From: Puniceicoccaceae bacterium
GTDB lineage: Bacteria; Verrucomicrobiota; Verrucomicrobiia; Opitutales; Oceanipulchritudinaceae
Reading direction: 5' to 3'
NCBI GenBank assembly: GCA_040830765.1
Contig: JBFOMH010000019.1
Span: 96,001 to 160,000, forward strand
DNA: 64,000 nucleotides
In this document: piece after piece, positions 28,361 through 64,000 of the stretch
Layout: every line of letters begins with the position of its first letter
Position numbering within the stretch: position 1 is the first letter of the stretch
Position numbers and translations under genes: made by a program
The notes under the pieces: model-generated
What the model was told of the DNA's origin: nothing
Database searches by the model: none
Seen by the model: only the letters and a program-made list of their open reading frames with translations

Positions 28361-28450
28361 GGTGGGATGTATGAGTGGCCGAAAGCGGCGGTCTTGAACA
28401 CCGTTAGGCCGGAAACGGTCTCGGGGGTTCGAATCCCTCTCCCACCGCCA
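28361..28450 (+). tRNA. tRNA-Ser (anticodon TGA), atypical D-stem, possibly a decaying copy
   Basis: Acceptor GGTGGGA/TCCCACC with G73 and CCA. Anticodon arm GCGGT-CTTGAAC-ACCGT, long variable arm AGGCCG-GAAA-CGGTCT, T-arm GGGGG-TTCGAAT-CCCTC. Confidence 0.88.
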
Positions 28451-28502
28451 CTCGACAAGCTCGTGGCAGGCCAAGCGAGAGCTTGGACTGACGCGAGCGC
28501 AG

Positions 28503-28552
28503 GCGAGTGCCCTGAGCGAGCGTAGCGAGTGCCCTGAGCGAGCGTAGCGAGT
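28503..28552 (+). repeat. Perfect 22-bp tandem repeat (2 copies plus 6 bp) in a REP-like element after the tRNA
   Basis: gcgagtgccctgagcgagcgta x2 followed by gcgagt. Nearby hairpin ccaagc-gaga-gcttgg at 28471-28486. Confidence 0.85.
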
Positions 28553-28573
28553 CGATGGGCTAAACCAACCCGA

Positions 28574-31500
28574 TCAGTCGAGGGAATTGAAATCGAGCAT
28601 ATCCTCTTCGTCCTCAATCAGGGAAGTTTCCTCAGGAATCACCGGGAACAGATTGGAAAAGCTGCCCAGGCGGGAATCCAGTTCAAACAGGGAACCGGAA
28701 TAGGAAGCCACCGGGACAGGCTCCACCATGACGACCTGGCGACTGGTGGCCTCTTCAGCATGACCGGACTCGCCAGGAAGTGCTTCTGACGTGACTCTGT
28801 ATGACAGTGCATCCACTCGGATAGAATTCGGGGCGTACAATGGCTCAGTTACTGTTGATGAATCCACAGGATTGCTCATCCCGACTGCCAAAGCCTGATC
28901 AATAAGAGGCTTTCCGCTAAAATCCGATTGATGAGTGAGGTCTGTCCCATCGGAATGCAGTTCCTCAATTGATACCGTGCTTGTGCTTGAATTTGGATCA
29001 AAGTCGTTGATCTCAAAGAACCTCGGTGGTTGAGGGCCGACTTCCCTTTGCAGCTCAGTCGACTTTAAGAGGAGAGTGACGACAGTCACTTGCAGATCAT
29101 CCACCTCCCAAGGCCCGTCGTCATTTACTGCTATGACAGAGATCGAATAATTCCCTGTCATCGAATAGGTGTGCGTAGCAGTAACTCTTGCAAGGCCATT
29201 GCTGGGTGAAAATGGTCCGGTTATCGTTTTAAGATTCCCATCACCCCAATCGATTTCCACGGACTCAACAAAATCGTCACCCTCGTCCAAGATATCGAGG
29301 AAAAGAACATATTCATCACTGAGAGAGAGAACATCTGGTCCGGTAACCTGGAGTGCAGGCGCAAAGTCCATAACAGTCACAGCAGGTCCATTGGCCATCC
29401 AAGTCCCGTCATCATCGGTCACAGAAACGGAAATCGAATAGGCATTGGGACCATCGGAATATACGTGTTCCACAACACCATTCCCAGGGAAGTCTTGAGC
29501 GGGATAGGTATCAATAACACCGTCGCCCCAATCTACCTCAATCGAAAGGATTGCATCCTCTCCCGGGTTGTTTACACCGATCTCCAAGGAGTACAGACTG
29601 CCCTCAAATACCTGGCTGATACCTAAGGCAACAATTGTCGGAGGAATATTGTCGACCTGAATAGGTAAGGGACCGGCCAAATGATACTCATGCTCTAAAG
29701 AGTCTTCATCCTTAACGGAAACATTGATTGAGTAACTGTTGAAGCCATCCTTGTAGGTGTGGAAAAAGGCGCCATCGACAGGTAATTCCGAAAAGGAATC
29801 CACAATCCCGTCGCCCCAGTCGATAATCACTTCCAGCACTTCGTCATCTCCCGGGTCCGTCACCTCGACAATCAACCGGAATGGGTCACCTTCAGAAACA
29901 TTCGGGACCCCGGACAAGCCAATAACCGGATCCAGATTGTCGACAAAGACTTTCTGCTGTGCCGTATAATTACCTTGGTCGGCTGTGATTTGTAACTCAA
30001 TTTCATAAACACCGTCATCTGGCGGGATGAAGATGGCCTCCCCGGCGTTGCTGGTCAGGAAATCGCCTGCAAGCGGATTCTCGCTTCCCACCAGCCGGAC
30101 GGACCATGCGTATTGAGGATTCGAGAGCAATGGATGACTGGCGGAAATGTTTATTGTTTCGCCCTCATCAACGGATCCGGAAAGGGGATTCCCCTGGCTA
30201 AATGCATCAATCCAAACAGCTGACTGAAGGTGGAAACCGAGTCTCCAGAGGCTTGCTCCGGATTCATTGGCTCGGTTAGCCAGGAAGTACAATTGGTTGT
30301 TGAATTGAGTTAGTGATATCGGAACTGAGCCAGACACTCCCGGATTGATGTCCGCAACCAACTCTGTTTTGGATCCATCTGTTCGCCACAGCTCATACCC
30401 ATGATCTGCATCTGCGGCGCGGAAATACAGCCAGTTCCTCGCCCCGTCAAAGAACTGTTTCAATTCAAACGGGTAAGAATTAAATGGTCCGGGATTGATA
30501 TCTGTGACCAGCATGAAACTTGATCCATCCGTGCGCCAGAGTTCCGCCCCATTTTCCGGATCGACTGCCCTGAAATATAGCCAGTTCTGTGTTCCGTCAT
30601 CAAAGTTCGTCAAATCAAAGACAAGGCCCGACGGGCCAAGATCCAAATCAGTGGCTAAAACGGGCTGTGAGCCATCAGTCCGCCAAAGTTTTGAGATTGA
30701 ATTGGAGTCCGTTACCCGGAAATACAACCAGTGGTTTTCTCCGTCCGTGAAAGGCGTCAAATTCGAAAGGCTTGCACCCTGAGGACCATCGAAAATTTCC
30801 CCGACTAGCTGCGGGGCTGACCCATCTGTACGCCAGAGCTCCCTGCCGGATTCCGGGGTTTCTGCCACAAAGTAAAGCCATTGAGATGTCTCGTCCGAAA
30901 CGGGAGTTAAGTCAGACAAATATTCATAGACACCAGATACGGGTTCTGTCGTGAATCCGTCAGTGCGCCAGAGCTCAGGTGGGCCGTTATCGATGCCCGC
31001 ACTGAAATAGAGCCAATTCTTCGAACCATCATGGAAGGCGGTAAACTCACCGTATATTGTATGACCACCTCCCTCTGTGACATCCTTGACCAGTTCCGGT
31101 TTCGAGCCATCAGTTCGCCAGAGTTCCGTACCGGTCGAAATCGTGTATCCAGAGAAGTACAGCCAATCCTTCTGGCCGTCATGGAAAAAGGTCAGGTTTA
31201 AAGGAGTCGAACTGAAATTGCCCTCCAAGAGGTCAAAAACCAACTCAGTTGTCTCACCGTCGGTCCTCCAGAGCTCGGCACCATGTGTTCCGTCTTTGGC
31301 CGTAAAATACAGCCAATCCTGGGTCCCATCATTTGAAATAGTGAAACCCATTGGATACGAGCCGCTCCTCGAAGGATCGGACTCAACAACCAATGGATTG
31401 ATTCCGGTAGTACTGCCCTCCGGAGACACGAGTTCGACAACAACCCCATTTGTACGCCATAGCTCCCGTCCGTAGAATACATCGTTCACAATATGATCCG

Positions 31501-34500
31501 CACTAAAGTACAACCAGTCGTTGAACTGGATAAAGTCTCGGGCGTAGGGGAGGTCTGAGACTTCAACAAGCGATAGGAACGCCAACCGGTTGGAATCCGG
31601 TCCGTCCAATGCTCCTGACACGATATAATTTTCCAGACCCAGTAAGGCAACCAGCGGCTTACTGTCATTTGGGATATTGCTGAAAGCAAAGGCTCCCTTA
31701 AAGTTGGTTATGGTGATCTGCTCATTCGCTTCGTATTGACCATTTCGATTGTCATCCAGATAGACCAGCAATCCTTCCCTGCCATCCTCGGTAACTTGCC
31801 TGATTCCATCGCCATTGAGGTCGTTCCAGATCGTGTCATACACGGCACTGACACCGAAACTTACCGCAAAGGTTGAGATATCCGTCCTGCCAGATAACTC
31901 CCTGTCGTAACCAATAACAGTAATACGGGCCGATCCGGTATATCCCGGTAAACTCGAAATCTGGAGTTCATCATTTTCCGTTATCCATGCCAATACTGCG
32001 GGGTTATCAGTGAAAGCCCTGAAAGTTATGGAATCCCCTTCAGGATCGATAGTTGCAACACCAATGGCTGGGAGATCTAAATTCAGGATCTCATCCGGTT
32101 GCGCGAAGATGTGTGGGAAATCGTCAAGCTGGGGCGACTGGAGGTTATCATCAAAATGCACTTCCTCAGCATTTATTGTTTCGACCAGGGTTTGGGCATG
32201 GTCGTCAAGCGGGTTCCCCCTGAGGTCTACAGACTGGAGGTTTTCCAGCCAAGGATCGGCCGGTTTAACACGAACACTATCTGCGGCGAAACTTCCGTTT
32301 CCACTATTGTCCAGAGTGACCGTAAGGATACCCGAATAGATCGCGACCGTATCAAGCAGCTCCCATTTGCGCCCGTTGAAGTCATCACTGCCCGGCTCGA
32401 AACCTTGATTGACAACGTGTTGCCCAAGGGGCTTTTCATCACCATCCAGTGAGACGGACCCAATGGAGTAGCGCGAATCGATACTGCGGCTCTCATGAGA
32501 CGGCCATGTTACGTAAATGGAATATTCCCCGGAAGGTAGTCCTTCAAATGACCAGGTTGCCATATGCTCACCCGTCAGTTCCGCATCCGGAACTAAGCGG
32601 TAGCTGCCGCCATAAGCTCCCGGATGGTCCCCGCCCGACCAGCCATCACCCGTTTCGCTGTATTCCGTGTCCCCATTGTCGGCGATGAATTGTCCGATCA
32701 AAACATCCACCTCGCTGACACGATTGTCCTGTAAATTTAGAACTTCCAGCTTGTCCAATCCAGCCAATGCAGAAATGTCGATGATTCCGTTTCCACGAGC
32801 ACTCAGGGTGACCAGTTGCTCGAGCTCGCCTATTGATGATAGACCAGCTTCAAGGAGACTAATCTGGTGAAGCTCCCCTAGATCCGGCACATACAGGCGC
32901 CCAGTGGAGGAGATATCAAAATACCAATTTGCATACGTCTCCTGCGCACTTGTGGAGGTGACATGAACAACTGGACCTTGGTCCGCAACCAAACCGTCTT
33001 CAGAATCGACTGTCCCCTGACGGAACACAACCCCACCACTGTCCAGGACATTCAGGAAGTACATTGAACCGTCCGGCCCAAAGTTCAGGTCATAAATAAA
33101 GTTCGCCGTTTCAGAAAATACCTCAGCGCTGGCGTTGTTCGCCAATGACTTGCCAGGTCCGGGGAACCGTATCACGCGGAGATCATTTCCTTGGGCTGCA
33201 TACAAATTGCCGTCGGGACCGAACACCAATCCAGTAAATCCGGATGCTCCCCCGCTCAACAGTGTCCCGTCAATGCTCAATTGGTTGAGAATAGTTCCGG
33301 AGAATGGAGAAATGACAAAAACCCGGGGATTCGAACCGTCGGAGGCATAGATCGAACCATCCGGTCCGACTGCTAGATCCCTGAGGAACACACCCTCAAC
33401 AGAACTGAATACCGATCCATTCGGGTCTTCATTTGGCCCGGGAAGCGGCTCACTCGTTATTCCATCGAACCTGTAGATTTTGTTTAAGTGCGTTTCCCCA
33501 TCAAACGATGTGCTGATGAAGTAAACCTTTCCATCCGCTCCAAAAACGGGTGGCGTACCAATAAAGTAATCCCCAATTGGCAATTCCGCGAAGTTGTTAA
33601 AGACCCCTGTTCCTTCGTCATAGACCAGAATCTGGGCGTTTCCAGTCGGTAACCTGTGAAGCACGAAAAGTCTGCCATCCGGGCTAATCGCAGAGCTGAT
33701 AACTTCATTCAACAAACCATCATCAAATACCTTCTTAGCAAACACGCCATTGTCATCCAGGCTCAGCCATTCGAGTGCCCGTAGATTCCTCAACACGTCG
33801 ATATTGGTCAGGAGGTTCGAGTCGACACTAAGCATTTTCAGCTCTGACAATTCCTCCAGTGCATCAATCGTTCGGATTTGATTGAAGTCCAAGACAAGGG
33901 TGTTCAACGAACGAGTATATTCCAATCCCGAGAGATTCCTTATATAGCGCTCCTGGGTTAGCTTGAAACCGCTGGCGACAAGATGTTTGAAACCGATCAG
34001 ATCGCTCACATGTATCGGTGACCGGAACACTGGCAACCCGTCCCAACCTTCCGTCACCGGAAGTCCCAGTTCGGTCGCTATGGCTGCCCGCAGATTGCGG
34101 TCCGGAATATCCACCTCAGGATCGCGTTCCCGGATCGCACTGTCGATGATGGACTCTCCAGCAAGCGGTTGAACCGTCAGTTCCTCACCATTGATGGCAT
34201 CGTTCGCCCGATCCCGGATTTCAACCGGTTCACCAACAAAAACATCCAGTCCGCTTTCCCCGAACAAACGGTCCCGATTCTCATTTCCGTCCAGTATATC
34301 CTCACCTTCCCCGCCATAGATGACATCATTGTCAAACCGAGTCGGGGGCACTTCTCCCCGCTTGGGAGCTTCGATGGAAAAGGTGATCTCTACCTCGTCG
34401 GCGGGCGGCAAGTAATCCTCTGCAAATCCCTCGCGGAGGACGAGTTCGGTCATGGAACCATTGGTTCTCCATAGCTCTAATCCGTTGATTCCATCATTGG

Positions 34501-49500: not shown

Positions 49501-52500
49501 GCCCGAACCCCTCCAACGTGAGGCTATCTCCGGACTCCCCGGGCTCCTCAAGCGTGAACCGGAGCCAGTGTTCATCCTGACCGGACCGGAAAACCAGGCC
49601 GGTTACCTGATCAAGAAGACTAAACCGGTTCAAATCAAGCGCGTCATCTCGACTGTCATACAAGCTCTCAGCTAAAGCGGGAACAAATTGCCCCTCGGCC
49701 TGAAGGATTGAATCCACAACCGCTCCAATAGTCGAAAGCCCATCCAGGCTGATCGGAAAGACGGTACCATCAGCCAATTGGAATCCAATGTCATCAAGCC
49801 CCGGAACCACTCCCCTCACCCCGTTATCATTATTCAGTTCGGATAGCGCTGTCCCGGATGTTAATTCCCGCCGCGACTCAGGAATACGAATTCCGAACAC
49901 GAAGTTGGTCGCCAGTTCCGGCACAATCGACAAAGTCCCATCCGTGCTGATATTGACCAAATCTCCAAGGCCTTCCGAGAAATCAAGTTCAGCGGTTAAT
50001 GCTTCGAATGTGTGCCTGAAATCGATCTGGAAGGTCAACACTCCGGACGGCATGTCGAAATCGATCGCACTAAAGGCCGGAAAATCCAATTGGATGCCCT
50101 GGAGACTGTCGAAACCCGGTGAGCCCAGTTCGAGCTTCAGACCGTCGAAGAGTTCCCCGATGTAACGGAAAAAGTCCAACAGTTTATCAAGTGAAACATC
50201 GGGTAAAGTTATATCCCCAAGGTCCGGTAAACGGAGATTCTTGAGAAACGAAAAGTCAAATCCACTGAAGGCGGGCCCTTGTCCGAATTGGGTAAACCAG
50301 CCACTCAACTGGTCAAAGAGCCCGAGAAGATCAAACCCATCGAACAGGCTGAAGCGTCCAAAATCAAAACTGCCAGATCCCGGGTCTCCAGACTTCAGGC
50401 CATCAAACTTGAGCCAATCCGGGTTGAACTGGAAATCGAAGAATGTGTCCGGATCGATACACAAGTCGGTATCAATGCTCGTTGAAAACCCGTCCAGCTT
50501 TCGCTCATATCTTCCGATTTTCACGATTAGGGGCAGGTTCAGATCAAACCGGACATCGCCGCAGTCCATGGCAATGAGTTCATCAAGCGATGAAGCAAGC
50601 ATTTCAGCCACTGTAACCCGCCCATCTGAATTGGGATCAACGAAATTGAGCTCTGTTGTCAGAAGGAAATCAAGCGTGGCATTTGCACTGTCGACCTGGG
50701 TTTTGAGCTCTCCAAGACGCGCTGTCACGTCAATGGGATTGCTATCCGGGCCGGCAACCGCCTTGGCAGAAAGACTCAGCAGGGGTAGAACCGCTCCCTC
50801 AGAATTCCGGGCACTAGAAATGAAGAATGCATTGGAAGAAACCTGGTCAACAGAGAGGTCTATGCCGAAGGTAAACGCCAGTTCCAGCGCGAGTTCAAGA
50901 TCGACCGTTGTGTTGGAATCCAAGTCCAGTCCGATGTTCAGGTTATCCGCTGCATCTCCCAGATCGAGTGCGGCGTCCAGCGTCCTTTGCCCCTTGAAGA
51001 CGATATTCTGGAATAGGATTTCATTGCCACCTTCAATGACTATTTCAAAGTTCTCATCCAGGATGGGTGACCACTCCATGCCGTCGTGAATGAACGACTG
51101 CTTTTTTAATGTTTCGATCAGTCCAAAGCGGGTCGGTGCAGTGTCACCACTGAAGTAATTCTCAATCGGCTGAATCAGCGATTCATTGAGTTTGTCATAG
51201 ATCTCGATAAGGTCGTAAATGGAACGAGCTGCTTTGGCCAATTCCCCGTTATCCCGCTGTATCAACTCAACCAATCCCGGAATTTCCTTGGCGAGTTCGC
51301 TGGCGGCAATGTTCTCCGAGAGCACCCGGACCAGGGCCCTGATTCCATCAAGGATGGTGGCCTGCAGTGGTTCGGACAGTATCTCTGTGGCAGGAGGGGG
51401 AGTGAAGTTGACCTGATAAATTCCCCAGTTGGTTTCCCGGTAGTCTATAGTGAGGCCGTCTACAGCCAACGATTCCCCCTCCCAGAATCGCGGGTCGTTG
51501 AAGTAAATGCTGTCAATGGAAGCCGGGCTGGAAGCCGCGGCATCCCTCAGGGCAACAAACTGGGTCCTTATCCAGGATGAGTCGTATTTATCGGCGTCGA
51601 TAAGCAAATCCGCAATCTCCCAAAGGATGATCTCACTGTAAAATGCCTCCCGCGCTTGAAGAGCCGTACTCCAATCAAATCCTGCTACGCTTGAATCAGC
51701 TGCCCGGTATGAACCGTCAGGATTTTCAACGATGACGAAACTGTCACCCCCCGGCGCCGCGACGTAAGTCATCAGCTGCCCGGTGCTATCCGATTCAAGA
51801 ACGCCAAAGAAAGGGGTGTAGGTTCGGCTGCCGTCCGTTCTCAGGTTACCATTCTCATCGAAGGGCCGATTGCTGACCTCAATGAACGTAATCGGCGTAT
51901 TGTCCGGGACCTCGAAGTCTATTTGCAGGCCCAATTCGTGGAGGTCGTCCTGATCGTCAGGAGGACCATGCAAGGGCGTGTCCCCACCCTGCCTCAAACT
52001 GGCACTACGCAACTCCAATGCTGGCCCGGCTGATTCCAGCAGGTTAGCAGCCCGGTAGATTATTTCCGCAGCCCAGCTGGTTCCCCAATCCTCAAGCTGG
52101 GCCTTGCCATCTACACCCATCTGGACATCGAGCCCTTCCGATTGATTGTCAGAGAATTGTTCCCACCCGGGTGCATTGGGATCGTTAAGCCACGTCGGTA
52201 GTAATTCATTACTGGGGGTGTGCTCAATTGCCGCGGAGGCAGAGGTCTTGAACGAAACCGCCCCGTTAAACAGTCCAATTGCATGAGCAGTCCCGCTTCC
52301 AATCTGCCCGGATAAGGGCAACTCATTTCCTAAAGCACTGGGAAATCCCAGGAAATTGAGCCGCTGCTGAACACGTAAGACATTCAAGGCGTCCGTCCCA
52401 GCCTGGACGGCGAATTCCCCTGTTTGTGAGTAGCCTCTGTCCACTTGAATCGTGAACGACCTCGCTGCTCCTCCGTTGACCCGGTAATTGCCGGTCAGGA

Positions 52501-55009
52501 ATCCTTGAAATCCCCGGCTGGCGGGATCGACATCGGTAACTCCCAATGCCGTGCTGGGGGCGAAATGGAATATTCCTGTCGATGCGAATGTCCCTGTTGG
52601 AGAGTTGTCGTATTCAAATTCTGTAAACAGGGTCCCGATCAATTCAGTCCCATCGTAAATCGCCCAACTTCCTGATGGATTTTCCTGCGTTGTGTATCCA
52701 TCAAACCCAACCAGTTCATAGGTCGAGCCCGACGGCTGTTGCCCGCCAAGGTTGACCTCAATGAAATCTCCTGTCCGTCCTTCAGTGAAAACGCCCCCCC
52801 CGAGACTGACATTGTCCAAATGCACCTCGGCCTGGATGGCGTTGTCACTACCTCCATCAAGTGAGACCTCGAGCCGATAGATCTCCCTACCTGCAAAGCC
52901 TGCCGGCAGATTAAGACGAAGTGACCGGAAAGCCCCATCCTGGGCAACAAGAGAAACCGAGGGCAAATGGATCACCGCTGAGTTGTCCGATGGTAAAAGG
53001 GCAATATTCAGGACATCATCTTGCGACGGACTGACTACTTGCAGATCCACGTGTAGTTCCGTGGCAAAACTGGGAATGTAGAACCAATTGTGGACCCTTG
53101 TCGCTGAGGCTTCATTGAGAATCAGGAAGTGGTTATTGCCGCGACCAAGACCAACACGGGCAGTCTCTCCACCACCGTGGTGGGACCAGCCAGGTTCGAT
53201 ATTAGTCGAATTGGAACTTTCCGGTTCTAAAGGTGGGGTCTCGAAATCACCATGCACAATCTCCAAAGGATCCCATTGAGGCGCCCAACGGACCTCGGTG
53301 AACTGCTGTTCCGACAATCCCAAAACGCGGAGTGCGTCTATGGCAGCAGAACCATCATCGTTTACCAGTTGGTCGGGGGTATTGTCGTGGTTCTGGGGAT
53401 TTGAACTTGCGTTGACATCGCCGAAGAAAACCGGATCCGGCCGCACAGCTGTGCTGGGCATGCTGTCCAATGACTTCGCCGCGGTGCTGTAGGCATATCC
53501 AGTATTGGAAAAAATAGGATTCAAGTCTGTCTCGGGCAAAATCGCACCTTTAGGAATCGTCCCCTGGATAGTCGCCATGTAAAATGTCGACCAGACCCAG
53601 CTGTGGTCGCCCCCAAAATCCTTAGCTAACAATTCGTACTTTTCAGGGAGATAGGGATCGACCAGGAAATTGTAAGCTCCTGGTATTGGCCGGCCTCCTG
53701 GTACTGCAATGCCTCCGATACTATTCTTGTTCTCAGTCTGGTAGTAGACGTCAGCGAATTCGACATTATCCCAAATGGTTGCCCCATACCCGTTTTGGAT
53801 CTGGAAAGTATCGTAGAGAATGGTGTTGAATTGCGGCAGCCCGATCCCAGATTGCCCCTGCAGTTCGTCAATAGGAATCAGGATCTGGTCGAAGTCATGA
53901 GGATCCAGGAAGGTAACGTGGTCGACAGGAACATCATACCGGGCAAGGCGCTCTACAGCTTCACTTGTGACTGCTGAGCCAAAACTGTGCGCGATGAAGT
54001 GCAGTGGAATGTCGTTGGCAGCTCCCAACTCAGGTTCTACCAAGCCCAGCCCGGTTAGCATTGAAAAAAGCGCATCGCCTGCTGCCTCCGTCCATCCGGA
54101 GGTGGGCTCATTTGACTCAACCGCCCAATCAAACAGGAGTATGAGGTGTCCAGATTGACCAACATCCAGAACTGGGTCCGGCAGAATACTTGAATTCACC
54201 TCAGTGCTCGATCGATCAAATCCTCCCGCACCTCCTTGGTCGACTAAATCATAATCCAGCAACCAGGCTTTCTGTACGGTATCACCATTTGAGGTTATTC
54301 TCTGGTGTATTGCCTGGGCCAACTTCCAGAGCGCATCCCCGGATTCTGCCCCATAGTCTTCCAACGCAGCTCGAAGTGAAGGCGTAAGTTCAGGATAGGA
54401 TTTTAGGATGAGATCTATCGTTCCCTCAAATCCCATTTGGAATCCGTGGGTAATCACGGTCACTCCCGTGATGACCAAGTCTTTTAGCTGAGTCGCAATC
54501 TCTTGCAACGACAATAAGGATTGGTCCACTGACTCGAATACTGGTCCATTGTATTGTTCGGATGGAGGCGCCCTCGGCATCAACGATCCAGAAGTTGACT
54601 GATCGGACAAATTTGTCCTGTCCGTTTGATCTCCGGATATACTGCCTGCAGCAGCTGAGTAACTGGTAGTATCCGACAAGAGGAATTGCTCTATGGCTTG
54701 CCCATCAAGTAGTTCAAGGCTCAATTCGGGACCGATCGCATTACCCTCGCTGGAAGTGTCAAAATTCTCCTTTTCCCCGAGAAGTTCCTGGTCTTCCACG
54801 TCGAAAATTCCGTGCTTGTGGGTATCAGACCCATTACCTGCAACGGATATTTCACTCTCAATATCTGCGCTAAATACCTCACTTGTTTGTGCCTGATCTT
54901 CGAAGATATCCTCTTGATAGCCAACAGGCATACCTTCTCCAGAAAGCAAGAGCCGGGGCTCAAGCCTCTCCAAATCGAAACTTCGTCGAGCTGGAATTTT
55001 CTTTGGCAC
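28574..55009 (-). CDS. Giant (8811 aa) LEPR-XLL/RTX-repeat surface protein with hydrolase, PG-binding, FG-GAP, ELWxxDGT, LRR, propeller and PKD-like modules
   Basis: Uninterrupted 26.4-kb ORF. N-terminal FDLERLEPRLLLSG, no Sec signal, many GGxGxDxL nonapeptides, GDINGDSYDDF-type FG-GAP repeats, many ELWRT[DN]G repeats, LRRs, and IDWGDG PKD-like repeats. Confidence 0.93.
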   Translation of the reverse strand: MPKKIPARRSFDLERLEPRLLLSGEGMPVGYQEDIFEDQAQTSEVFSADIESEISVAGNGSDTHKHGIFDVEDQELLGEKENFDTSSEGNAIGPELSLELLDGQAIEQFLLSDTTSYSAAAGSISGDQTDRTNLSDQSTSGSLMPRAPPSEQYNGPVFESVDQSLLSLQEIATQLKDLVITGVTVITHGFQMGFEGTIDLILKSYPELTPSLRAALEDYGAESGDALWKLAQAIHQRITSNGDTVQKAWLLDYDLVDQGGAGGFDRSSTEVNSSILPDPVLDVGQSGHLILLFDWAVESNEPTSGWTEAAGDALFSMLTGLGLVEPELGAANDIPLHFIAHSFGSAVTSEAVERLARYDVPVDHVTFLDPHDFDQILIPIDELQGQSGIGLPQFNTILYDTFQIQNGYGATIWDNVEFADVYYQTENKNSIGGIAVPGGRPIPGAYNFLVDPYLPEKYELLAKDFGGDHSWVWSTFYMATIQGTIPKGAILPETDLNPIFSNTGYAYSTAAKSLDSMPSTAVRPDPVFFGDVNASSNPQNHDNTPDQLVNDDGSAAIDALRVLGLSEQQFTEVRWAPQWDPLEIVHGDFETPPLEPESSNSTNIEPGWSHHGGGETARVGLGRGNNHFLILNEASATRVHNWFYIPSFATELHVDLQVVSPSQDDVLNIALLPSDNSAVIHLPSVSLVAQDGAFRSLRLNLPAGFAGREIYRLEVSLDGGSDNAIQAEVHLDNVSLGGGVFTEGRTGDFIEVNLGGQQPSGSTYELVGFDGYTTQENPSGSWAIYDGTELIGTLFTEFEYDNSPTGTFASTGIFHFAPSTALGVTDVDPASRGFQGFLTGNYRVNGGAARSFTIQVDRGYSQTGEFAVQAGTDALNVLRVQQRLNFLGFPSALGNELPLSGQIGSGTAHAIGLFNGAVSFKTSASAAIEHTPSNELLPTWLNDPNAPGWEQFSDNQSEGLDVQMGVDGKAQLEDWGTSWAAEIIYRAANLLESAGPALELRSASLRQGGDTPLHGPPDDQDDLHELGLQIDFEVPDNTPITFIEVSNRPFDENGNLRTDGSRTYTPFFGVLESDSTGQLMTYVAAPGGDSFVIVENPDGSYRAADSSVAGFDWSTALQAREAFYSEIILWEIADLLIDADKYDSSWIRTQFVALRDAAASSPASIDSIYFNDPRFWEGESLAVDGLTIDYRETNWGIYQVNFTPPPATEILSEPLQATILDGIRALVRVLSENIAASELAKEIPGLVELIQRDNGELAKAARSIYDLIEIYDKLNESLIQPIENYFSGDTAPTRFGLIETLKKQSFIHDGMEWSPILDENFEIVIEGGNEILFQNIVFKGQRTLDAALDLGDAADNLNIGLDLDSNTTVDLELALELAFTFGIDLSVDQVSSNAFFISSARNSEGAVLPLLSLSAKAVAGPDSNPIDVTARLGELKTQVDSANATLDFLLTTELNFVDPNSDGRVTVAEMLASSLDELIAMDCGDVRFDLNLPLIVKIGRYERKLDGFSTSIDTDLCIDPDTFFDFQFNPDWLKFDGLKSGDPGSGSFDFGRFSLFDGFDLLGLFDQLSGWFTQFGQGPAFSGFDFSFLKNLRLPDLGDITLPDVSLDKLLDFFRYIGELFDGLKLELGSPGFDSLQGIQLDFPAFSAIDFDMPSGVLTFQIDFRHTFEALTAELDFSEGLGDLVNISTDGTLSIVPELATNFVFGIRIPESRRELTSGTALSELNNDNGVRGVVPGLDDIGFQLADGTVFPISLDGLSTIGAVVDSILQAEGQFVPALAESLYDSRDDALDLNRFSLLDQVTGLVFRSGQDEHWLRFTLEEPGESGDSLTLEGFGLSELIIELIDNAGDTIRLTSGDLPEIDLRELEPGDYFLRVYGGDAGLAYNLKVSSSSGPATDTLHVGQNISVRLSGDSNNLAFQDLTDGAGTFSIIALNGSTAGAPGFGLGILSTDNDRDGLITGAPLLSNSLSENFFIRDFELSAEFGFQASDVDALADLQFFNVGIQDGSGSGRATLVIKAKDPSREMTFKEIWESVSKPEEALFEVGSYTDPGKTEFQARPSGTLNIELPVRLRPASLHNALVKEGTEPLIVVSWTDIFDVASLSVTLEDFPELDKLKELAFQKIVQGLRELQASIDEFENNDLFSQEIILLEKSINDLVDLSDVFGGIVDQIEGSGILTIADLERVLSNALFEISNGKERSSGLLAGPPVLNGGWSISGTESTFGAVTEFVIVEGIEDPGFIPVSLAFDPLTDVDAANNTIQFGTPHNLSEGDRIVFVRTFGSSDVTGLEDGKPYTAVIVDENTIRVRGEDDGEMVALGSPGNPTNTLVFEVDSESPLVAGNSYFIEFELLERNGDVGQLVLENVLEGQEDLVILQANEDLPGRYKVVWEQGQDAANLTIRATAGFAGVIDGLIVQSRSVSFEDNLLQVEFDFRDRGSQELPLNFNLAPLELGNIPSSLISAGGDLTLAHLIDLDFDFAIELSDPLSPQFYLRDSSQVTVGTKLDTDNLDFSAGFGGLGVHIVGGSVQLSNPNPQNPEDDLATWELTLNRGSFDLGNTGETSDSLYHLLVEMDSEVDLKQTLSGRLSASLPTFSPTKTNPIGSFELEVPSLEAFFVALFDDNVPLQSGVDGQYTYSLPDFQGALDEFLGDFTNAWGSITGGWDAFLAFLEDAVDREIFGIEIPLIGDQLKEASPFLSDLRSAMKGLGEPGTRDQLKERLLEALGPDNLNLLKDSDGDFDVDLDDILVVAENTNAENLEFNLLLGKSLEIIDPNDTPINVDLGLPGLGLDIDGSVQLELAFEFFLTFGINKNKGFYFGTNRTNELSIQLEAALPDLSARGTLLFLELDVADNGTEVSGHINIDLKDGGDGDGRLYLSELANSNGQLFSADLSVEAEIELHLLTSFAGNPRFPSLRTDLSVYWDFEGDENGRLPGSVPIIEFNNVAINAGSFFNDLFGPLLEDIDAFLDPVREPLKFLTNPLPALDQLGLRLSILDIASIFGEDTEYEGTINFIRSVVELAELADSLSASSERDGWIKMGDSDPSSPDFTIDGNHALDGQMSGKLNPENAKSGGSKLNELLGKGAGKDLEKSESLKFLFPLFETPALAFQLLMGKNVDLVVLDLPKFAINFPWELQPWIPIFPPWPVFLRMTAHVGAFADLSFGFDTKGIRTYIENGASDPADILDGLYIGDLDENGKDRPEFGLTAGFAATAEVNIFVAAAGVGGGIFSNIDLNLNDPDGDGRVRWSELERNLAVGPLWIFDVSGAITFDVFAYLKIGYETFIKFITIYEESLRYSATIINWNIPRPNTTPVLASNNEGVLTLHIGESAARRKPGGAGNAVVDAKDGDENFRVLPGATPDSVIVRAFGVEQSYSGVSRIVARAGQGNDSIYIDPGVVIPVVLHGGPGNDQLTAGGGNASLYGDEGVDVLLGGIAADYLDGGGGNDDLSGNGGNDLLIGGPGNDNLEGGAGNDTLRGLAGIDRLEGGFGDDWLDGGDGDDSLVGSLGNDDLLGGAGNDILIGNRGNDRLDGGPGDDDLQGDENNDQLIGGLGNDYLFGGRDFDTIWGDEPDDEVNGGDDIIWGGRGNDIIYGGAGNDRIFGGVDIGQYAVASVGAGSDRIIGGAGADTIYAGNDGKGSGVDTGNTIYGDLENSADPGGMPTEHSDTIFGDSGDDMIFAGFGDDMVYALQGDDLVLAGRGDDTIVAGSGRDSVFAGSGDDLVLGETGDDFLAGEIGDDRLSGGIGSDVIWGGFADLQREDFESTPESIAFELPRESLEAEARFPTGYDAPLIMPVAVLQVSLGGYFMDGQDSIDGGTGTDWIFGGGSVDTLFGGEGDDYIDGGAGNDEISGGGGDDIIRGGLNSDILHGDAGIDQLIGDPGADFLYGDAGDETTGATRGQRLFGGSGIDYLYAWAASIDPAREILLEGEQLFGGSDGDWLYGNLRQDVIDGGGGNDYIHGDYLAGPVYERNRDASISGGDDRLFGGTGEDQLYGGGGNDTLWGGADSDWLEGQNGLDNLYGGAWIDILVLDTEFDYTSEGGTFDGHFGNASENDVPDDNATDILQIRGTAYDDTIRIGQVSQDDNRLVVQILTVVKAESSTAPDSGISASGEASLFSLEVIAEWKDSSGNPLVEQFRIAGLSGDDIIEFVDEPGDFHPLDIGQLANRGANVKDFIGVIDGGSGDDTLTGTSGRDRIDGGEGSDTLYGLAGNDRLWGGETTASDDHDILYAGPGNDDLIGGSGTNELYAWSRNPHTEPFGIFLVDEQTGEILIDEQSGKPVLEDTGLNRMLGGKGNDKLYGGTGLDFMYGNGGDDTLYTRDGVAFENVESQFNERGDEWKLYAKSTDQVWYYSGTNLPDVIRVDYVTEPGLIGEHHLITRLTENNGNFTFDAEVQLSFFATDADGNRIWDQYDTLFGFSGIESSDAETRGIALAAADSESRKSEADRREARDLVNSLLPPEADFLAILIDALDGNDEVVVGPTVTKTVWVDGGDGDDVILINSGTPILIDKTEKQVFELPDETRLELRNDEPFVAVSTGGTTIQLTTAYELSDGIKGSTAFSGLTIDNPDDKDNYLFSIADGIVLNPGDAIVINSLSITDQIHFKLFEWTGTDWTAVTGGESTSDGRIDLYQEGTPIINPEGEYLLQVTSNRTPTRYEILFDLIATPDAVDLSASNNEFSSAHEIADIEFKERIAGLNLHDSAEQDADWFWFDIPEQGIQAQRLPDQLVKLVDLNDSGLTLALFNEFQEAIPSVGTGSELNLSNLDPGRYYLLVSGNPGRYELLTSIGRSGIDTEDLSAFEIQDLAPSLQVVRQDVLLGGNGNDVLIGGAYEDWIFGGDGNDVLSGGYDNQASDILWGGSGDDIFQIILDQLPLVESAGRGLNPTGGTFVPTLVDRLDGGDGEDQVLFLGGDYDRFGQPVPDHVAIRYNTVLHRYELTALLWDLANHRFVTEPAFGGGEQYAQHYAFYQAVNIESTVIDTRAGDDVVHGNPGYILNGSEWGIAPQARPQGATIAALTILGGDGNDLLFGGAEDDFIDGGDGNDYIAGGEGSDELFGGPGDDLVSGNSQQEDPYEWVLRNGVIGSNDELEFAAKLEDFTADSPIYATFNAGDGADWYLIRTPPHLEQMSLQAAKAGVQGAITVVFKGAAEQGIFEQEEIANLLIDVYAATYQDGIVQLSTDTVASPEYFLVRVRNVATFGLTGAEIQIDGEINERLVLFLTEGGGDIRVEESRPVLIDPNAFNFSTTTIDGRIDLLNASLQDTDWRDDFSITIGDYKDVFAYRYGNKIGLFPLDGSRLRISMGSGNIVREGSFFADGSPAEQPVSSTLISLPITEEPSSPWLGNEKSSIDLGTAYVRSDGAFSTRNPERGTIVQRLETIPGRTYAVFAEVWTISALHRVAQTTEFDFANPDFSTGKSVIDWDHSSGKFYGSFVAEGEVTFLLLQTEIDYYDAVAAFEEVVVMPIDEAGQVNPEFGFTSGQTNRLLEPAMGTYSISFNFDSGVFGTDLAGGGDGDPEFIEFSPATPLNILAGNEDNLPFAEGGTARGSLTISYNIGDINGDSYDDFMFREDPNARDQSEQFAYILFGPLESQNSPAIADTADIIVDIGSIGVPSEHMGDVDGDGIDDLIFLNAYSKDIGVITIIRGDGSAWPRDLSALTILDLPDDRIYQIQNVTAPEEVSIQAVNWNGDSDEDLLLTYQRAVERLENGGFLPDGGGWFLQGDAEYSEGYGLARTQLNNNWGGFYQQFDTIPGRVYTITGYVENLNPLQPWTVAVTGNLEVVGFHSGYFEATFLATSQASTISLLADYYFRTGPNNEPDPDGQPLVRFDDFSITETAAIVFSGDEVSRIGTFEFTEYILNDPGNLLARISGDSIYRQYGSSSLSSSNVGDVNGDGLEDVFFIDSAINRGYLVYGNAEGESGNLLELNPNTSGVEVWQSELFSTPFIEPRIYGLGDINKDGYDDFAVAHQHDLNHFVYEDGFIGGAFIIYGAQDLRADPQYPGDPFLSSYPVQGIRIGWEQGGLPKGALSVSAGDFNADGYIDLAIGEPRNRIYVGPDQSVSDSNGSVYIFHLDETTSQGIHTLSLQEPILRGTSYAPLFGTMPLAPVGDVDGDGIDDLLIGAAGYDSSEVINAGAIYLLPGERLKGFESTPPADTLSNLSVSGSGEFLIEDSRPLPKGILTENQSEGWYQFTTLGDGGAQDRISISPAHDPANSISFNGISNEAGRGATRFEFDLSPLLPYFSDGEESRIGTINLVIEFAQSFQFIVAGVATSQIELYALAVEGDGTASLDVQSSRTHLGDYTIRGGPTLFEVPTEHIRSFIEGGRTRIVFEIEFGGGSGDIIALPYHEARGISAFSKTGLSADISSRPGLLADLYSDTGDLIAASQAEISLAGLEAGHYFLRVFRAEPEIISGGINPGPAPSEPLDLFEFNGWLYFSAEDGRNGRELWRTNGSVTELVRDINPGVADSNPSGFVLFDGWLYFSASSYSSGNELWRTNGEITELYADINQGLDSSTPRRFTEFNGFLFFTADDGMNGPQLWRIDGSSVPTQPFTDINIGFGLLSGPLNLHPYNGFLYFTADDGESGRELWRTDGLTAPVDPFLDINPAGGSFPTKFMEFDGVLYFLAEDGNGSLPLWRTDGIETRPLSTTKPLELIDIDEYFIFNDGNADRIYMRVYDDNEGDYVLWHTVGQISDPENITLEAVQIQGAYIYNPDDFALFNNQLYFRGQDLDNHIHRTTADGIERVFALNPETNIPWQLNTPWGFTESNGWLYFGADSDLYDVDAGFDIPRFGEEIWRTDGDITELVSPLGSFGGISFGSGSVAWDGYDFEFTPLNGWTYFKANDGINGLELWRTNGSMTELVLREGFAEDYLPPADEVEITFSIEAPKRGEVPPTRFDNDVIYGGEGEDILDGNENRDRLFGESGLDVFVGEPVEIRDRANDAINGEELTVQPLAGESIIDSAIRERDPEVDIPDRNLRAAIATELGLPVTEGWDGLPVFRSPIHVSDLIGFKHLVASGFKLTQERYIRNLSGLEYTRSLNTLVLDFNQIRTIDALEELSELKMLSVDSNLLTNIDVLRNLRALEWLSLDDNGVFAKKVFDDGLLNEVISSAISPDGRLFVLHRLPTGNAQILVYDEGTGVFNNFAELPIGDYFIGTPPVFGADGKVYFISTSFDGETHLNKIYRFDGITSEPLPGPNEDPNGSVFSSVEGVFLRDLAVGPDGSIYASDGSNPRVFVISPFSGTILNQLSIDGTLLSGGASGFTGLVFGPDGNLYAAQGNDLRVIRFPGPGKSLANNASAEVFSETANFIYDLNFGPDGSMYFLNVLDSGGVVFRQGTVDSEDGLVADQGPVVHVTSTSAQETYANWYFDISSTGRLYVPDLGELHQISLLEAGLSSIGELEQLVTLSARGNGIIDISALAGLDKLEVLNLQDNRVSEVDVLIGQFIADNGDTEYSETGDGWSGGDHPGAYGGSYRLVPDAELTGEHMATWSFEGLPSGEYSIYVTWPSHESRSIDSRYSIGSVSLDGDEKPLGQHVVNQGFEPGSDDFNGRKWELLDTVAIYSGILTVTLDNSGNGSFAADSVRVKPADPWLENLQSVDLRGNPLDDHAQTLVETINAEEVHFDDNLQSPQLDDFPHIFAQPDEILNLDLPAIGVATIDPEGDSITFRAFTDNPAVLAWITENDELQISSLPGYTGSARITVIGYDRELSGRTDISTFAVSFGVSAVYDTIWNDLNGDGIRQVTEDGREGLLVYLDDNRNGQYEANEQITITNFKGAFAFSNIPNDSKPLVALLGLENYIVSGALDGPDSNRLAFLSLVEVSDLPYARDFIQFNDWLYFSADHIVNDVFYGRELWRTNGVVVELVSPEGSTTGINPLVVESDPSRSGSYPMGFTISNDGTQDWLYFTAKDGTHGAELWRTDGETTELVFDLLEGNFSSTPLNLTFFHDGQKDWLYFSGYTISTGTELWRTDGSKPELVKDVTEGGGHTIYGEFTAFHDGSKNWLYFSAGIDNGPPELWRTDGFTTEPVSGVYEYLSDLTPVSDETSQWLYFVAETPESGRELWRTDGSAPQLVGEIFDGPQGASLSNLTPFTDGENHWLYFRVTDSNSISKLWRTDGSQPVLATDLDLGPSGLVFDLTNFDDGTQNWLYFRAVDPENGAELWRTDGSSFMLVTDINPGPFNSYPFELKQFFDGARNWLYFRAADADHGYELWRTDGSKTELVADINPGVSGSVPISLTQFNNQLYFLANRANESGASLWRLGFHLQSAVWIDAFSQGNPLSGSVDEGETINISASHPLLSNPQYAWSVRLVGSENPLAGDFLTSNAGEAIFIPPDDGVYEIELQITADQGNYTAQQKVFVDNLDPVIGLSGVPNVSEGDPFRLIVEVTDPGDDEVLEVIIDWGDGIVDSFSELPVDGAFFHTYKDGFNSYSINVSVKDEDSLEHEYHLAGPLPIQVDNIPPTIVALGISQVFEGSLYSLEIGVNNPGEDAILSIEVDWGDGVIDTYPAQDFPGNGVVEHVYSDGPNAYSISVSVTDDDGTWMANGPAVTVMDFAPALQVTGPDVLSLSDEYVLFLDILDEGDDFVESVEIDWGDGNLKTITGPFSPSNGLARVTATHTYSMTGNYSISVIAVNDDGPWEVDDLQVTVVTLLLKSTELQREVGPQPPRFFEINDFDPNSSTSTVSIEELHSDGTDLTHQSDFSGKPLIDQALAVGMSNPVDSSTVTEPLYAPNSIRVDALSYRVTSEALPGESGHAEEATSRQVVMVEPVPVASYSGSLFELDSRLGSFSNLFPVIPEETSLIEDEEDMLDFNSLD
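30230..31530 (-). repeat. ELWxxDGT-type repeat block 2 (about 48-aa period) in the giant protein
   Basis: Recurring WLYFxAxDxxxGxELWRTDG units. Limits approximate. Confidence 0.85.
34450..35760 (-). repeat. ELWxxDGT-type repeat block 1 in the giant protein
   Basis: Recurring FNGWLYFSA..GRELWRTNG units. Limits approximate. Confidence 0.85.
39800..44900 (-). repeat. Hemolysin-type Ca-binding RTX repeat region of the giant protein
   Basis: Dense GGxGNDxLxG nonapeptides, densest at about 42950-44820. Limits approximate. Confidence 0.9.
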
Positions 55010-55236
55010 TGAAGGTCACGGAGAGCTACGCTTAGACCCTGTAAGGTCGCGAACAATACTTTCATATCAGCTCACCTCCAGTGGTCAAGAATTTACATTA
55101 ATACTATCTATTAAAATCGCTAATACTTAGGGCCTCCGCTTATCCCGACATCGTTGACTTTAGATGAGTCTTGGAGGAACCGATACGCCCCTCTTTCGAG
55201 GCCTCCAGGCAAGGTGAGCCGGTTAACCAAACCGGA

Positions 55237-58200
55237 TCAGTCGAGGGAATCGAATCCGAGGATATCCCCGTCACCCTCAATTGAATTAGAATCCTCCTCA
55301 ATTACGGGGAAGAGGTTGCTGAAGCTGCCGAGACGGGAATCCAGTGCGAAAAGTGAGCCGGTGAACGAGGTTACGGAGACGGGCTCCAGGGATGCGGACT
55401 GGCGGGCAGCAGCCTCTTCTGCAGAAATAGTCCTTGCGGCAATCATGAAGGAGGGTTGGGGCTCGGCGATCTGTGGCGTGGCTTCCGACTCAGAACTGAT
55501 GATCTCGGAATCCGGGGCATAATGGGTATAAACGAGGGAAACCGGCGTCGGCCCGTCACCGGTTGGCACCGGCTCAGAGCTGGATTCGTAGGCTGGATCA
55601 TCGGTTTGGAACATCACCGTATCATAGGCAGTATCCCCACTGGCCCCGATAAGGCCGTAACCACCATCAGTAACGACCGCATTAAAGGCATGGCCGAGAA
55701 CCAGCTGGTCCTTCCACATGACACTGACCGTGGAGCCCTTGAAGGTAACCTCAATATCCTGCGCACCGCCCTGCATAATCAAGTCATTCTGGAAGGCCGT
55801 ATCAATGACAATGCCCTTGCCGGTGCGGTGTCCAATGACGACCTCACCGGTCTCGGTGTTGACGGTGGCAAACTTGTATTGCTTGGGCCCGTAGTAATCG
55901 AAGACGAAACCGCCCTCACCGCCTGTTGTCAGAGTTCCGGCAAGCCGGATTAATGAGGTGTAATCGACGTCCACGCTCATGAGGTTGATAGCCGCATCGG
56001 CAATCGCGGTTCCTGAGTAGCTGCCGTTAGCCAGCACCCAGGCACCTGTTTCAGGAGCATCGAGCAGGTCGGTGAGGGAGGCATCAAAATTATCTGTCTT
56101 GGTCAGGGTCAATTCCGGGGCAAGACGCTGGACAATGACATTGTCGATGGCCGCCTTGGAATTATCCCCACCCAAGCCAACCATGCCTTCATTAAGGGCG
56201 TGGCTGATTCCGTATTGATCGATGACGACCGGGAAGGTGTGGGTCAGGGAAGTCCGGTTGTTGACAAGAAGCGTGGCAACCGTGCCATTAACCGAGAGGA
56301 GAACATTGTAATTGGTATTGGACTTCAGGGAACCGGTGTAAACACCTTGGACATCAACGATCCAACCTTCGGCCGTCCGGTGGCCGATTTCCAGCTTGTT
56401 GGTTGAGACATTGATACCGGCAAACTTGAAATCGAGCTCGCTCTTGTAGTCAAAGACCACGTAGGCATTACTCTTGTAACCGGAGGTTGGCTTTACCGGG
56501 CGAAGGACAGCCCGCATCTCGAAGTAAGTCGGGACATAATCGTTGACAAGGAAGACACTCAGGGCATCCCCACCGCGGAACTCAGGCTCAACATAGTAAC
56601 TGCCGCTCTGGACACTCCAGACTCCACTATCGATGAAGAATCCCTGTGCGCTGTTGCCATCGTTGAAGCCGACTGAGCGGAGGACATCCCGCTTGCCGCC
56701 CGGGATATTGCCGGCCTGCGGATCATCCGGGGCACCGGTCTGTGCCTTCCACCATGGATCCTGTTGCAGGACAAGGCCCAGCTCGCCGTAGGGCTCACCA
56801 TTGCGCTCAACCTCGGCGGCGATACCGACATCGCCCGGGCGTGTCGGATCTGCGCCATCGCTTTCGGAGAGGTCATAGAGGTAATCTTGCAGTTGCGGCT
56901 GCAAAGTGCGGCTGATAGTGGCAGCGCCAAACGGTGCGAACGGCACGAGATAGCTGTTGAATTCGCCGACCCAGTCGATGAGGCGGTCGCCACCGGTGTT
57001 GCCGATGAGGACATCCCGGCCGGCTCCGCCGTAGGCGATATCCTGGTAACTATAAGCGGTATCCGGTGTATTGTTGCCAATCGGATCGATGACCTTCTTC
57101 ACCGGCTGGGCAACACTGTCATGGTCGTCGTCAGCATTGAGCAAGTCATTACCAAATCCACCATAGACGCGGTCCTGACCGGTACCACCGACAATCCAGT
57201 CGTTGCCGAGGTCGCCGAAAATACGGTCGTTGCCATCCGTGTAGACAGCGGTAGTCGTTTCATCGATAAATCCATACTGCGGACCTTCGGAGGCATAGAA
57301 GTTGCCGAAGAACTGGCCGCCGTTATCGAGGAAGATCTTCCGCAGCGGGTTGTATTCATCATAGGCGGCGAACTCTTCGGCCTTGCGGGCCTCGAAGCCA
57401 AGGACGTTACCGGGGTTGTAGGGCAGCGTGTAATCGGAACGCATCGGGGTGCCGGTGCGATCGCCATCGGGGTCAGTGTACGAGGTAAATTCCTCGAACC
57501 AGCCCATGGTGGTTGGGTCGGATTCCAGGCCAGGCATCGCTTCGGTACCGGAAATAAAGTCGTCACCGGCTCCACCGTGGAGGGAGTCGTCACCCAGGCC
57601 GCCGAAGATGATGTCATCCGCGTATTCCGGATCAAAGTTCGGTGTCTGGTCGTTTTCAATGCCACCACCAATGCTGTCGAGGTAGAACGGTGTCAGGTTG
57701 ACGGTCTTCTTGAGCTCGTAGCGCTTGTTGATAACGGCTTGCTGCAGGTTACCCGGAGTGGAAATCGGATCGTCAAACTGGTTGTTTTCGAATCCGGCGA
57801 TTCCAAAGAGTGGCTCACCGGCGAGAGTATTGCGACTGGTGTAGATACGACCGTCGTCACCGAGGGCACCGTCATTGCCGGTTCCGCCGGAAATCCAGTC
57901 ATGGCCCCAGCCACCGATGAGGTTGTCATCGCCGGCCTCACCATAAAGGACATCGTTGCCGACCATGCCGTAGATTTCATCATCACCGGACTCACCGTGG
58001 ATTTCGTCCCGGGCACCGTTGTCACCGCCATCAGTGTTCTCTTCCGGATTATCCGGAACGAGGTCACGACCGCCAGGCGTGTAGTCAACCAGTTCAACCG
58101 CCCGCGGAATGAGCTTCAGGTTGTTATCGTAGCTAGTAAGGACGTCATCGATTTCGTCATCGCCGGCCCAGTTGGTGTTAAAGGTCTCGTTGTCGTAGTT

Positions 58201-63999: not shown

Positions 64000-64000
64000 G

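Follow-up and report, generated by a model that had tools for sequence, protein, structure and literature searches.

Does the C-terminal tail shared by two giant proteins serve as a signal for their export or anchoring? The question is raised by a stretch of 64,000 nucleotides from a Puniceicoccaceae bacterium (assembly GCA_040830765.1, contig JBFOMH010000019.1, here C19, positions 96,001 to 160,000 of the forward strand; hereafter the window), where the genes of two giants with RTX repeats, giant A and giant B, lie in tandem with giant B upstream and a gap of 227 bp between them (Table 1). A first-pass annotation, made from the letters alone, had taken the last 61 residues of both to be a sequence-specific signal of a dedicated machine serving a family of giant proteins. 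As judged from its distribution, the 61-residue tail is private to this pair and one further protein, P0001, and is not the signal of the family; the tag that the giants have in common is the N-terminal LEPR-XLL, found at all six giant starts of the genome, and not the tail. What survives of the signal idea in the sequence comparisons is a motif of five residues at the very C-terminus that is confined to one clade.

The tail shared by giants A and B

The two tails align without a gap, with 39 identities in 61 residues and an identical stretch of 15 (tblastn, E about 5e-20); different codons are used at 17 of the 39 identical residues, and the preceding domains differ, being PKD in giant A (Pfam) and ConA-like in giant B (AlphaFold and Foldseek), which bears out the first annotation on these points. 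Exactly two copies are present in the genome, as found by tblastn and by a two-sequence profile compared with 31,150 frames. No Pfam or NCBIfam family matched either tail, and its description as C-terminal and undescribed in these libraries stands. By contrast, the two proteins cannot be called unrelated, since their genes are in tandem and they share 10 more local alignments besides the tail (26-53% identity), and giant B, which had been given as 2,753 aa, is far longer: its frame is still open at the end of contig C19, after at least 18,661 aa, and its N-terminus is not on this contig.

The tails match at 47, 48 and 30 of 61 first, second and third codon positions, respectively. The ratio of non-synonymous to synonymous substitutions (dN/dS, Nei-Gojobori) is 0.23 (dN 0.27, dS 1.19, bootstrap 0.01-0.45) and about 0.04 in a core of 20 codons (dN 0.07, dS about 2), the whole-tail figures being underestimates, since identity was what singled out the stretch in the first place; of the claim that the tail is selected, some purifying selection, with a ratio not near 1, can be retained. 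The likeness tapers off upstream at about residue -94 and extends 18 bases beyond the stop codon, where 12 of the 18 match, a proportion comparable to that of the third codon positions. These values bear on a first alternative, that the tail is a relic of duplication, i.e. a disordered acidic end under loose compositional constraint with no specific partner: a non-coding flank as alike as the third positions and the bias in dN/dS would suit a relic, but each of 1000 bootstraps put dN/dS below 1 (Fisher p 6e-6).

Three other sources of the match or of its position were rejected: an assembly artefact, as 58 of the 183 bases differ; an integration-site repeat, as the match lies within coding sequence and third positions are saturated; and a C-terminal membrane anchor, as hydropathy is at most 1.1. 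No transmembrane helix was found near the C-terminus in the last 150 residues of the seven giant ends (highest 19-residue hydropathy 0.58-1.11). Folded alone from a single sequence, the tail gave a predicted local distance difference test (pLDDT) of 31, which is unusable.

Distribution of the tail and its third copy

Two of the seven complete giant ends of this genome carry the 61-mer and five do not. Elsewhere, 40 relatives gave chance matches only (E 0.24 or worse), and the tail was not found in 36 genomes of the family, in 27 LEPR ends, 72 metagenome ends and 65 genome ends, or in the ends seen of same-genus genomes whose secretion machine (described below) is 74-87% identical. A single-sequence metagenome scan was negative (0 of 67), as was a comparison with longer proteins that was limited to 2,000 residues (0 of 54 candidates), and the absence of matches among 1.84 billion representatives is a weak blank, the query itself being unrecovered from a library that probably does not hold these giants.

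The third copy stands, ungapped, at the end of P0001 (E 2e-17), a protein 74% identical to the last 350 residues of giant B. It retains 6 of the 15 residues identical in A and B, so that the 15-mer reported as invariant is invariant within the pair and not beyond it. All three copies are C-terminal and ungapped over 61 residues, with 19 invariant columns; A and B share 39 residues, B and P0001 28, A and P0001 23. Between giant B and P0001, identities per 61 residues drop from 52-54 in the domain to 47, then 37 and finally 28 over the three closing blocks, so that within the C-terminal region nothing changes faster than the tail (46% versus 85-89%). This rate is another point for a duplication relic, and so is the fact that private tail families inside single genomes are common (G004, 40%; G271, 74%; G120, 96%).

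The distribution largely refutes the view that a dedicated machine for the giant family reads the whole 61-mer, 15-mer core and all, as its sequence-specific signal, and we regard this view as very improbable. It can draw on three ungapped, always C-terminal copies on two different bodies, on the invariant columns and on the low dN/dS of the core; against this, all searches together gave these three copies only, with 2 of 7 ends here, 0 of 40 relatives and 0 of 36 family genomes, the tail is the least conserved part between orthologues, the 15-mer is mostly lost in the third copy, no second machine was found beside the giant A/B pair, and same-genus relatives with so similar a machine show no such tail in the ends seen. 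In our reading, the central part of the 61-mer, with the 15-mer in it, would owe its likeness to recent common descent and moderate constraint and would not be what is recognised.

Origin of the tail of giant A

The tail changes fastest, and in it giant A is nearer to giant B than giant B is to its orthologue P0001; therefore giant A would have received its tail from giant B. Contigs C8 and C33 are joined by an exact 126-base overlap into one giant (C8+C33), which has the last domain of giant A (34%), and a C7 giant of 5,302 aa has that of giant B (49%), yet neither carries the 61-mer. Giant A tracks the C33 giant to about residue -120, and giant B from about residue -100. We consider giant A to be, with high probability, a chimera in which the end of the PKD body is like that of the C8+C33 giant and the last 60-95 residues, with some 3' DNA, come from giant B. 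The copying, by duplication or conversion, is well supported by these alignments and by the DNA match past the stop, and would have taken place once this lineage and that of the P0001 bearer had parted. Giant ends would thus be swapped between neighbouring genes, and the 61-residue tail itself would be a local duplication of little weight.

A short C-terminal motif in the genus

Among 59 LEPR frames outside this genome, 35 were taken, of which 27 gave ends that could be read and 8 ran off the contig; the other 24 were short or open frames. Loci lacking a stop, 8 among the 80 from metagenomes and 3 among the 65 from genomes, were left out, and one motif end in the distant genome set, which may repeat a genome already counted, was kept out of the counts. 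Aligned at the stop, giants of the same genus show an acidic patch followed by hydrophobic-x-[S/Y]-[L/V]-Y; the last residue is Asp instead of Tyr in A, B and P0001, and the overall pattern is hydrophobic-x-[S/Y]-L-[Y/D]. This terminal motif was found on 10 of 16 same-genus ends, on none of 21 other-genus ends (including the frameshifted G137, whose true end was read separately, G356 with masked bases, and others possibly cut by frameshifts) and on none of 70 more distant metagenome ends.

The motif was written down from a first set of ends and then compared with ends seen later. Those of G008, P0001-P0004, L091 and L092 fitted, the last two being the top-scoring of 72 metagenome ends, and the misses among close relatives were two G007 ends and P0020. 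P0004 carries the motif with only 3 acidic residues, and P0002 joins the spacer of giant B to a YLY end, bridging the A/B tail and the wider motif. In this genome, the pattern, which was fitted after the fact, matches 4 of 2,717 crude open reading frames (ORFs), all of them giants; three of the seven giant ends have no terminal motif. At internal positions it occurs 25 times in 42,500. The five motif-bearing genomes fall into one 8-member clade of the tree of the GAF-adaptor, a component of the machine (support 100/100). The last five residues are alike even where the preceding spacer cannot be aligned, which speaks against a mere relic, and the codons for them vary among ends. A DNA or RNA element behind the motif was rejected, given these varying codons and the lack of a promoter or terminator match; a DNA pattern for the motif gave 9 matches in 5 genomes against 11 in the reversed control and is of no use as a finder.

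Directly behind each of three dockerin-type LEPR giants (3 of 3) we observed a small gene whose product starts like a signal peptide and has a cohesin-like domain (G000:C6:13721-14494, G000:C6:68655-69452 and L078:488-1294). Among these pairs dockerin is over the cut-off in 1 of 3 and cohesin under it in 1 of 3, and the gene order makes a dockerin-cohesin surface anchor likely for these giants. The terminal motif is missing from two of the three and ends the other. Its absence where a cohesin-like anchor exists fits, in small numbers, the tether that we propose below, and its presence on a dockerin-type giant is a further point against a relic. On balance we find it improbable that the tail is a relic of duplication, and just as improbable the companion proposal for the motif, namely shared ancestry or an end-guard against tail-specific proteases.

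The TolC/adaptor/M50/truncated-SecA machine and the LEPR giants

In giant A, residues 13-28 form the LEPR-XLL tag (22.5-24.3 bits against a cut-off of 17, NF012209) and, like the giants described by that family, five other giant starts are over the cut-off; the model covers 24 N-terminal residues and is silent on C-termini, and the start of giant B is unassembled. Giant B is most likely the continuation of the open LEPR frame C7:2-7948, because both frames break off in the same repeat: the repeat that ends the C7 frame also starts that of giant B (55-60% identity in amino acids, 89-92% in nucleotides). No exact overlap closed the gap between C7 and C19, and read contigs gave several collapsed repeat copies at the C19 end. 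At this contig end (G000:C19:206500-207223, L011:7500-8224) the read depth is 4-6x higher, with several variant copies; this is a collapsed array of repeats of about 165 aa in giant B, whose length may then exceed 21,000 aa. A separate contig of 2.5 kb (L052, G008:C404) carries the end of a SecA-like gene, a 110-aa LEPR frame and a 384-aa giant end and is, from this arrangement, a collapsed or internally deleted giant.

Two LEPR giants lie directly behind the machine operon on contig C7, a locus that contains no ABC (ATP-binding cassette) transporter and whose 676-aa SecA matched the DEAD, cross-linking and P-loop domains and no others. In this 97% complete genome the canonical type I ABC and HlyD models (TIGR01842, TIGR03375, TIGR01846 and TIGR01843) remained far under their cut-offs. 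The annotated expectation of a dedicated machine for the giants finds its candidate in this operon, although not a canonical type I system. Among 401 genomes of the order, 56 have a match to the M50-adaptor, a strong one in 44 cases, and the LEPR tag is present in 33 of 36 genomes with a strong match versus 1 of 9 without a listed match, in a sample whose kin are not independent. A complex model of the first 350 residues of the GAF-adaptor with the tail scored 0.01 against a mark of 0.32 and weighs neither way.

The operon is the secondary SecA_DEAD locus of Kamneva, Poudel and Ward 2015 (PMC4452313), for which a secretion role was proposed and, in the accessible part of the text, no cargo or signal named: both have a truncated SecA, an M50-HlyD, a GAF-HlyD, a further adaptor and TolC, and no ABC transporter. 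In contrast to that locus as described there, the LEPR giants here stand directly behind the operon, with a clade-specific C-terminal motif. We also observed a machine of the same clade (71-74% identity) in G137, which belongs to another family, downstream of a frameshifted LEPR giant (G137:C3, L067-L068); its sequence makes acquisition by lateral transfer likely.

Proposed role of the tail

From gene order, distribution and sequence we infer a cargo assignment, an export direction, a binding and a retention, as follows. Giants A and B would be cargo of the ABC-less TolC/adaptor/GAF-adaptor/M50-adaptor/truncated-SecA machine on C7, which would most likely pick them by the N-terminal LEPR-XLL tag as entry signal. 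They would be threaded N-terminus first, as a SecA-type motor and a cargo of 1-2 MDa argue for, and the tail would leave last. The tail would consist of a disordered acidic spacer that leads to a short linear motif, hydrophobic-x-[S/Y]-L-[Y/D], whose carboxyl end is free. This motif would sit in a pocket of a machine or envelope protein, so that the giant is tethered or the end of its export is marked. A docking handle is favoured by the build of the tail, in which 60-200 disordered residues lead up to a few conserved ones at a free end; for a putative role as docking handle, tether or end-of-export mark we see a little less than even chances, and for the explanation as a whole, a graft plus a handle on the cargo of the machine, chances that are about even.

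A model for such a tail is the retention module of LapA (10.1101/198937), where, in the accessible part of that work, one end of the giant adhesin remains lodged in a TolC-like pore and so tethers the protein. In LapA this is a folded N-terminal module that LapG cleaves and that goes with an ABC system, whereas the tail of giants A and B is C-terminal, modelled as disordered and without a sequence match, its retention being putative.

The opposite direction, C-terminus first, is proposed for LEPR giants of Chlorobium in the accessible text of a preprint (10.64898/2026.03.19.712371). Applied here, the tail would be a type-I-style export signal, with the acidic, hydrophobic-ended last 60 residues being read and drifting between lineages, as type I signals do. 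According to the portion available of PMC3034196, the signal of RTX proteins is C-terminal, about 60 residues long and not cleaved off; the tail recalls it in length, position, loose conservation and the RTX repeats of its bearers (PF00353 in both giants, with 35 and 22 GGxGxD repeats by pattern in A and B); moreover, TolC and HlyD-like adaptors are present, and each of the 16 same-genus ends is acidic with few K/R. However, no ABC of the HlyB/PrtD/LssB type is over its cut-off here, and some 600-1,900 residues separate the RTX repeats from the C-terminus (1,913 after the last repeat in A and 597 in B), unlike in type I cargo, where the RTX block lies just before the signal. One machine would face seven giant ends with different tails, three of them without the terminal motif, and many of its putative cargoes have no such tail; giants of other genera end in other sequences or right behind a folded domain, and it is the N-terminal tag that tracks the machine. 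We therefore think a C-first signal unlikely.

Several observations weigh against the graft and the handle as we propose them. The binding partner and function of the tail are putative; the pattern was widened to Asp to accommodate A and B, which like P0001 have it where the other ends have Tyr; and 6 of 16 same-genus ends have no motif at the terminus, as is the case for the three ends seen of G007 and G137, within the same GAF-adaptor clade. Most motif ends follow the same domain and have a common ancestry, so that they do not count as independent. Acidity is a general trait of the giants (at least 6 D/E in 12-20% of 25-residue windows), and therefore the criterion of an acidic patch is weakened. 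The absence of any indel across 61 residues in three copies exceeds what a five-residue motif needs. The orthology of P0001, known as protein only, is read from its 74% identity, and the LEPR start of giant B and its position behind the operon are deduced across the unclosed C7-C19 join.

Ends of distant giants

Distant giants with the same last domain (L091-L170, L206-L270 and P0001-P0064) were compared in turn. In other phyla, 20 of 62 such giants have machine genes within 10 kb, and none of the 20 has this motif; several distant giants near a machine share other short motifs, and L230 ends right after the domain with no tail. On the ends compared, the terminal motif is thus optional and clade-specific.

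Among 131 distant ends, 10 have a W-x-V-E-V end and 12 have W-x-x-D/E-F...N-P-N, and both are absent from the 2,717 ORFs of this genome; a Mesorhizobium group of distant giants ends in W...KGLLSRL. The ConA-like end domain was also seen in records titled archaea and Actinomycetota (L210, L228, L245, L251 and L252), some of which are maybe mis-binned. A TolC machine is not expected in archaea and Actinomycetota.

A broader proposal, which we put forward as doubtful, is that the machine reads both ends of its cargo, a universal LEPR-XLL entry tag and a clade-specific C-terminal stop-and-hold motif read by a co-diverging subunit. It is no less doubtful that this second motif would be acidic plus [S/Y]-L-[Y/D] here and W-x-V-E-V or W-x-x-D-F...N-P-N in other lineages.

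Features of the window

Table 1. Features of the giant-gene cluster (window coordinates) and the machine operon (contig C7)
Feature	Coordinates	Strand	Description
Giant A, 8,811 aa	28574..55009	-	LEPR-XLL start, RTX repeats, ELWxxDGT and FG-GAP repeats, leucine-rich repeats (LRR), Golvesin-C-like, SdrD-B-like and PKD domains, disordered tail
LEPR-XLL tag, giant A N-terminus	54926..54973	-	NF012209, at or over cut-off
Last PKD domains, giant A	29114..29647	-	Paralogous to the end of the C8+C33 giant, where the tail differs
61-aa tail, giant A	28577..28759	-	Acidic patch, then FNSLD at the end; very probably grafted from the giant B lineage
18 non-coding bases past giant A stop	28556..28573	-	12/18 match to giant B flank; edge of duplicated DNA
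Giant B, 3' end	55237..64000	-	Frame goes on beyond the window to the end of contig C19
Giant B, last folded domain	55594..56112	-	ConA-like / CBM66-like beta-sandwich
Giant B, spacer from last domain to tail	55423..55593	-	Pro/Ser/Thr/Glu-rich; low model confidence
61-aa tail, giant B	55240..55422	-	Acidic patch, then FDSLD at the end; orthologous tail in P0001
18 non-coding bases past giant B stop	55219..55236	-	Match giant A flank
tRNA-Ser(TGA)	28361..28450	+	Closes the giant-gene cluster
Machine operon	C7:24196-32759		TolC, short adaptor, GAF-HlyD, M50-adaptor fusion, 676-aa SecA

The end domain of giant B is modelled with a pLDDT above 90 over 168 residues (AlphaFold) and has CBM66 as its top Foldseek match (E 8e-9); the 115 residues past it are modelled without structure, from an alignment that is thin there. 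The closest named matches of the end of giant B are from Oceanipulchritudo sp. and an Opitutales bacterium, and RNA contigs overlap parts of its gene, an overlap that cannot demonstrate transcription.

At the start of giant A, an ATG at 55065 with a strong Shine-Dalgarno sequence (window 55009-55080, minus strand) opens a 114-aa frame that overlaps the giant out of frame. The GTG start of giant A itself has no comparable Shine-Dalgarno sequence, and the C7:2-7948 giant is likewise without an ATG start; translational control or erosion of the start site is possible. Between the stop of giant A and the tRNA-Ser gene, 2.9 copies of a 22-bp unit are found (window 28488-28552), which we take to be like repetitive extragenic palindromes (REP-like). 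The first part of the window (41-23348) holds a polysaccharide-use cluster with a fucosidase, a TonB-dependent receptor, two glycoside hydrolases (GH) of family GH94, five sulfatases, a GH10 and LacI and AraC regulators.

Novelty and meaning

A literature search found nothing on C-terminal motifs of LEPR giants, with subscription journals and supplements mostly outside its coverage; the clade-specific end motif and the graft appear to be new, and the machine has been known from genomes since 2015. The problem addressed is how proteins of 5,000-20,000 residues are exported and held without a type I ABC pump. The locus of 2015 has no assigned cargo in the accessible portion of its text (PMC4452313), and the LEPR giants described here are candidate cargo for it. 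A five-residue end motif in one machine clade is a small and cheap target for mutagenesis. If the machine does read both ends, proteins of 1-2 MDa would be tethered to the cell by their last residues, and the A/B pair would record the swap of such a handle onto a new giant.

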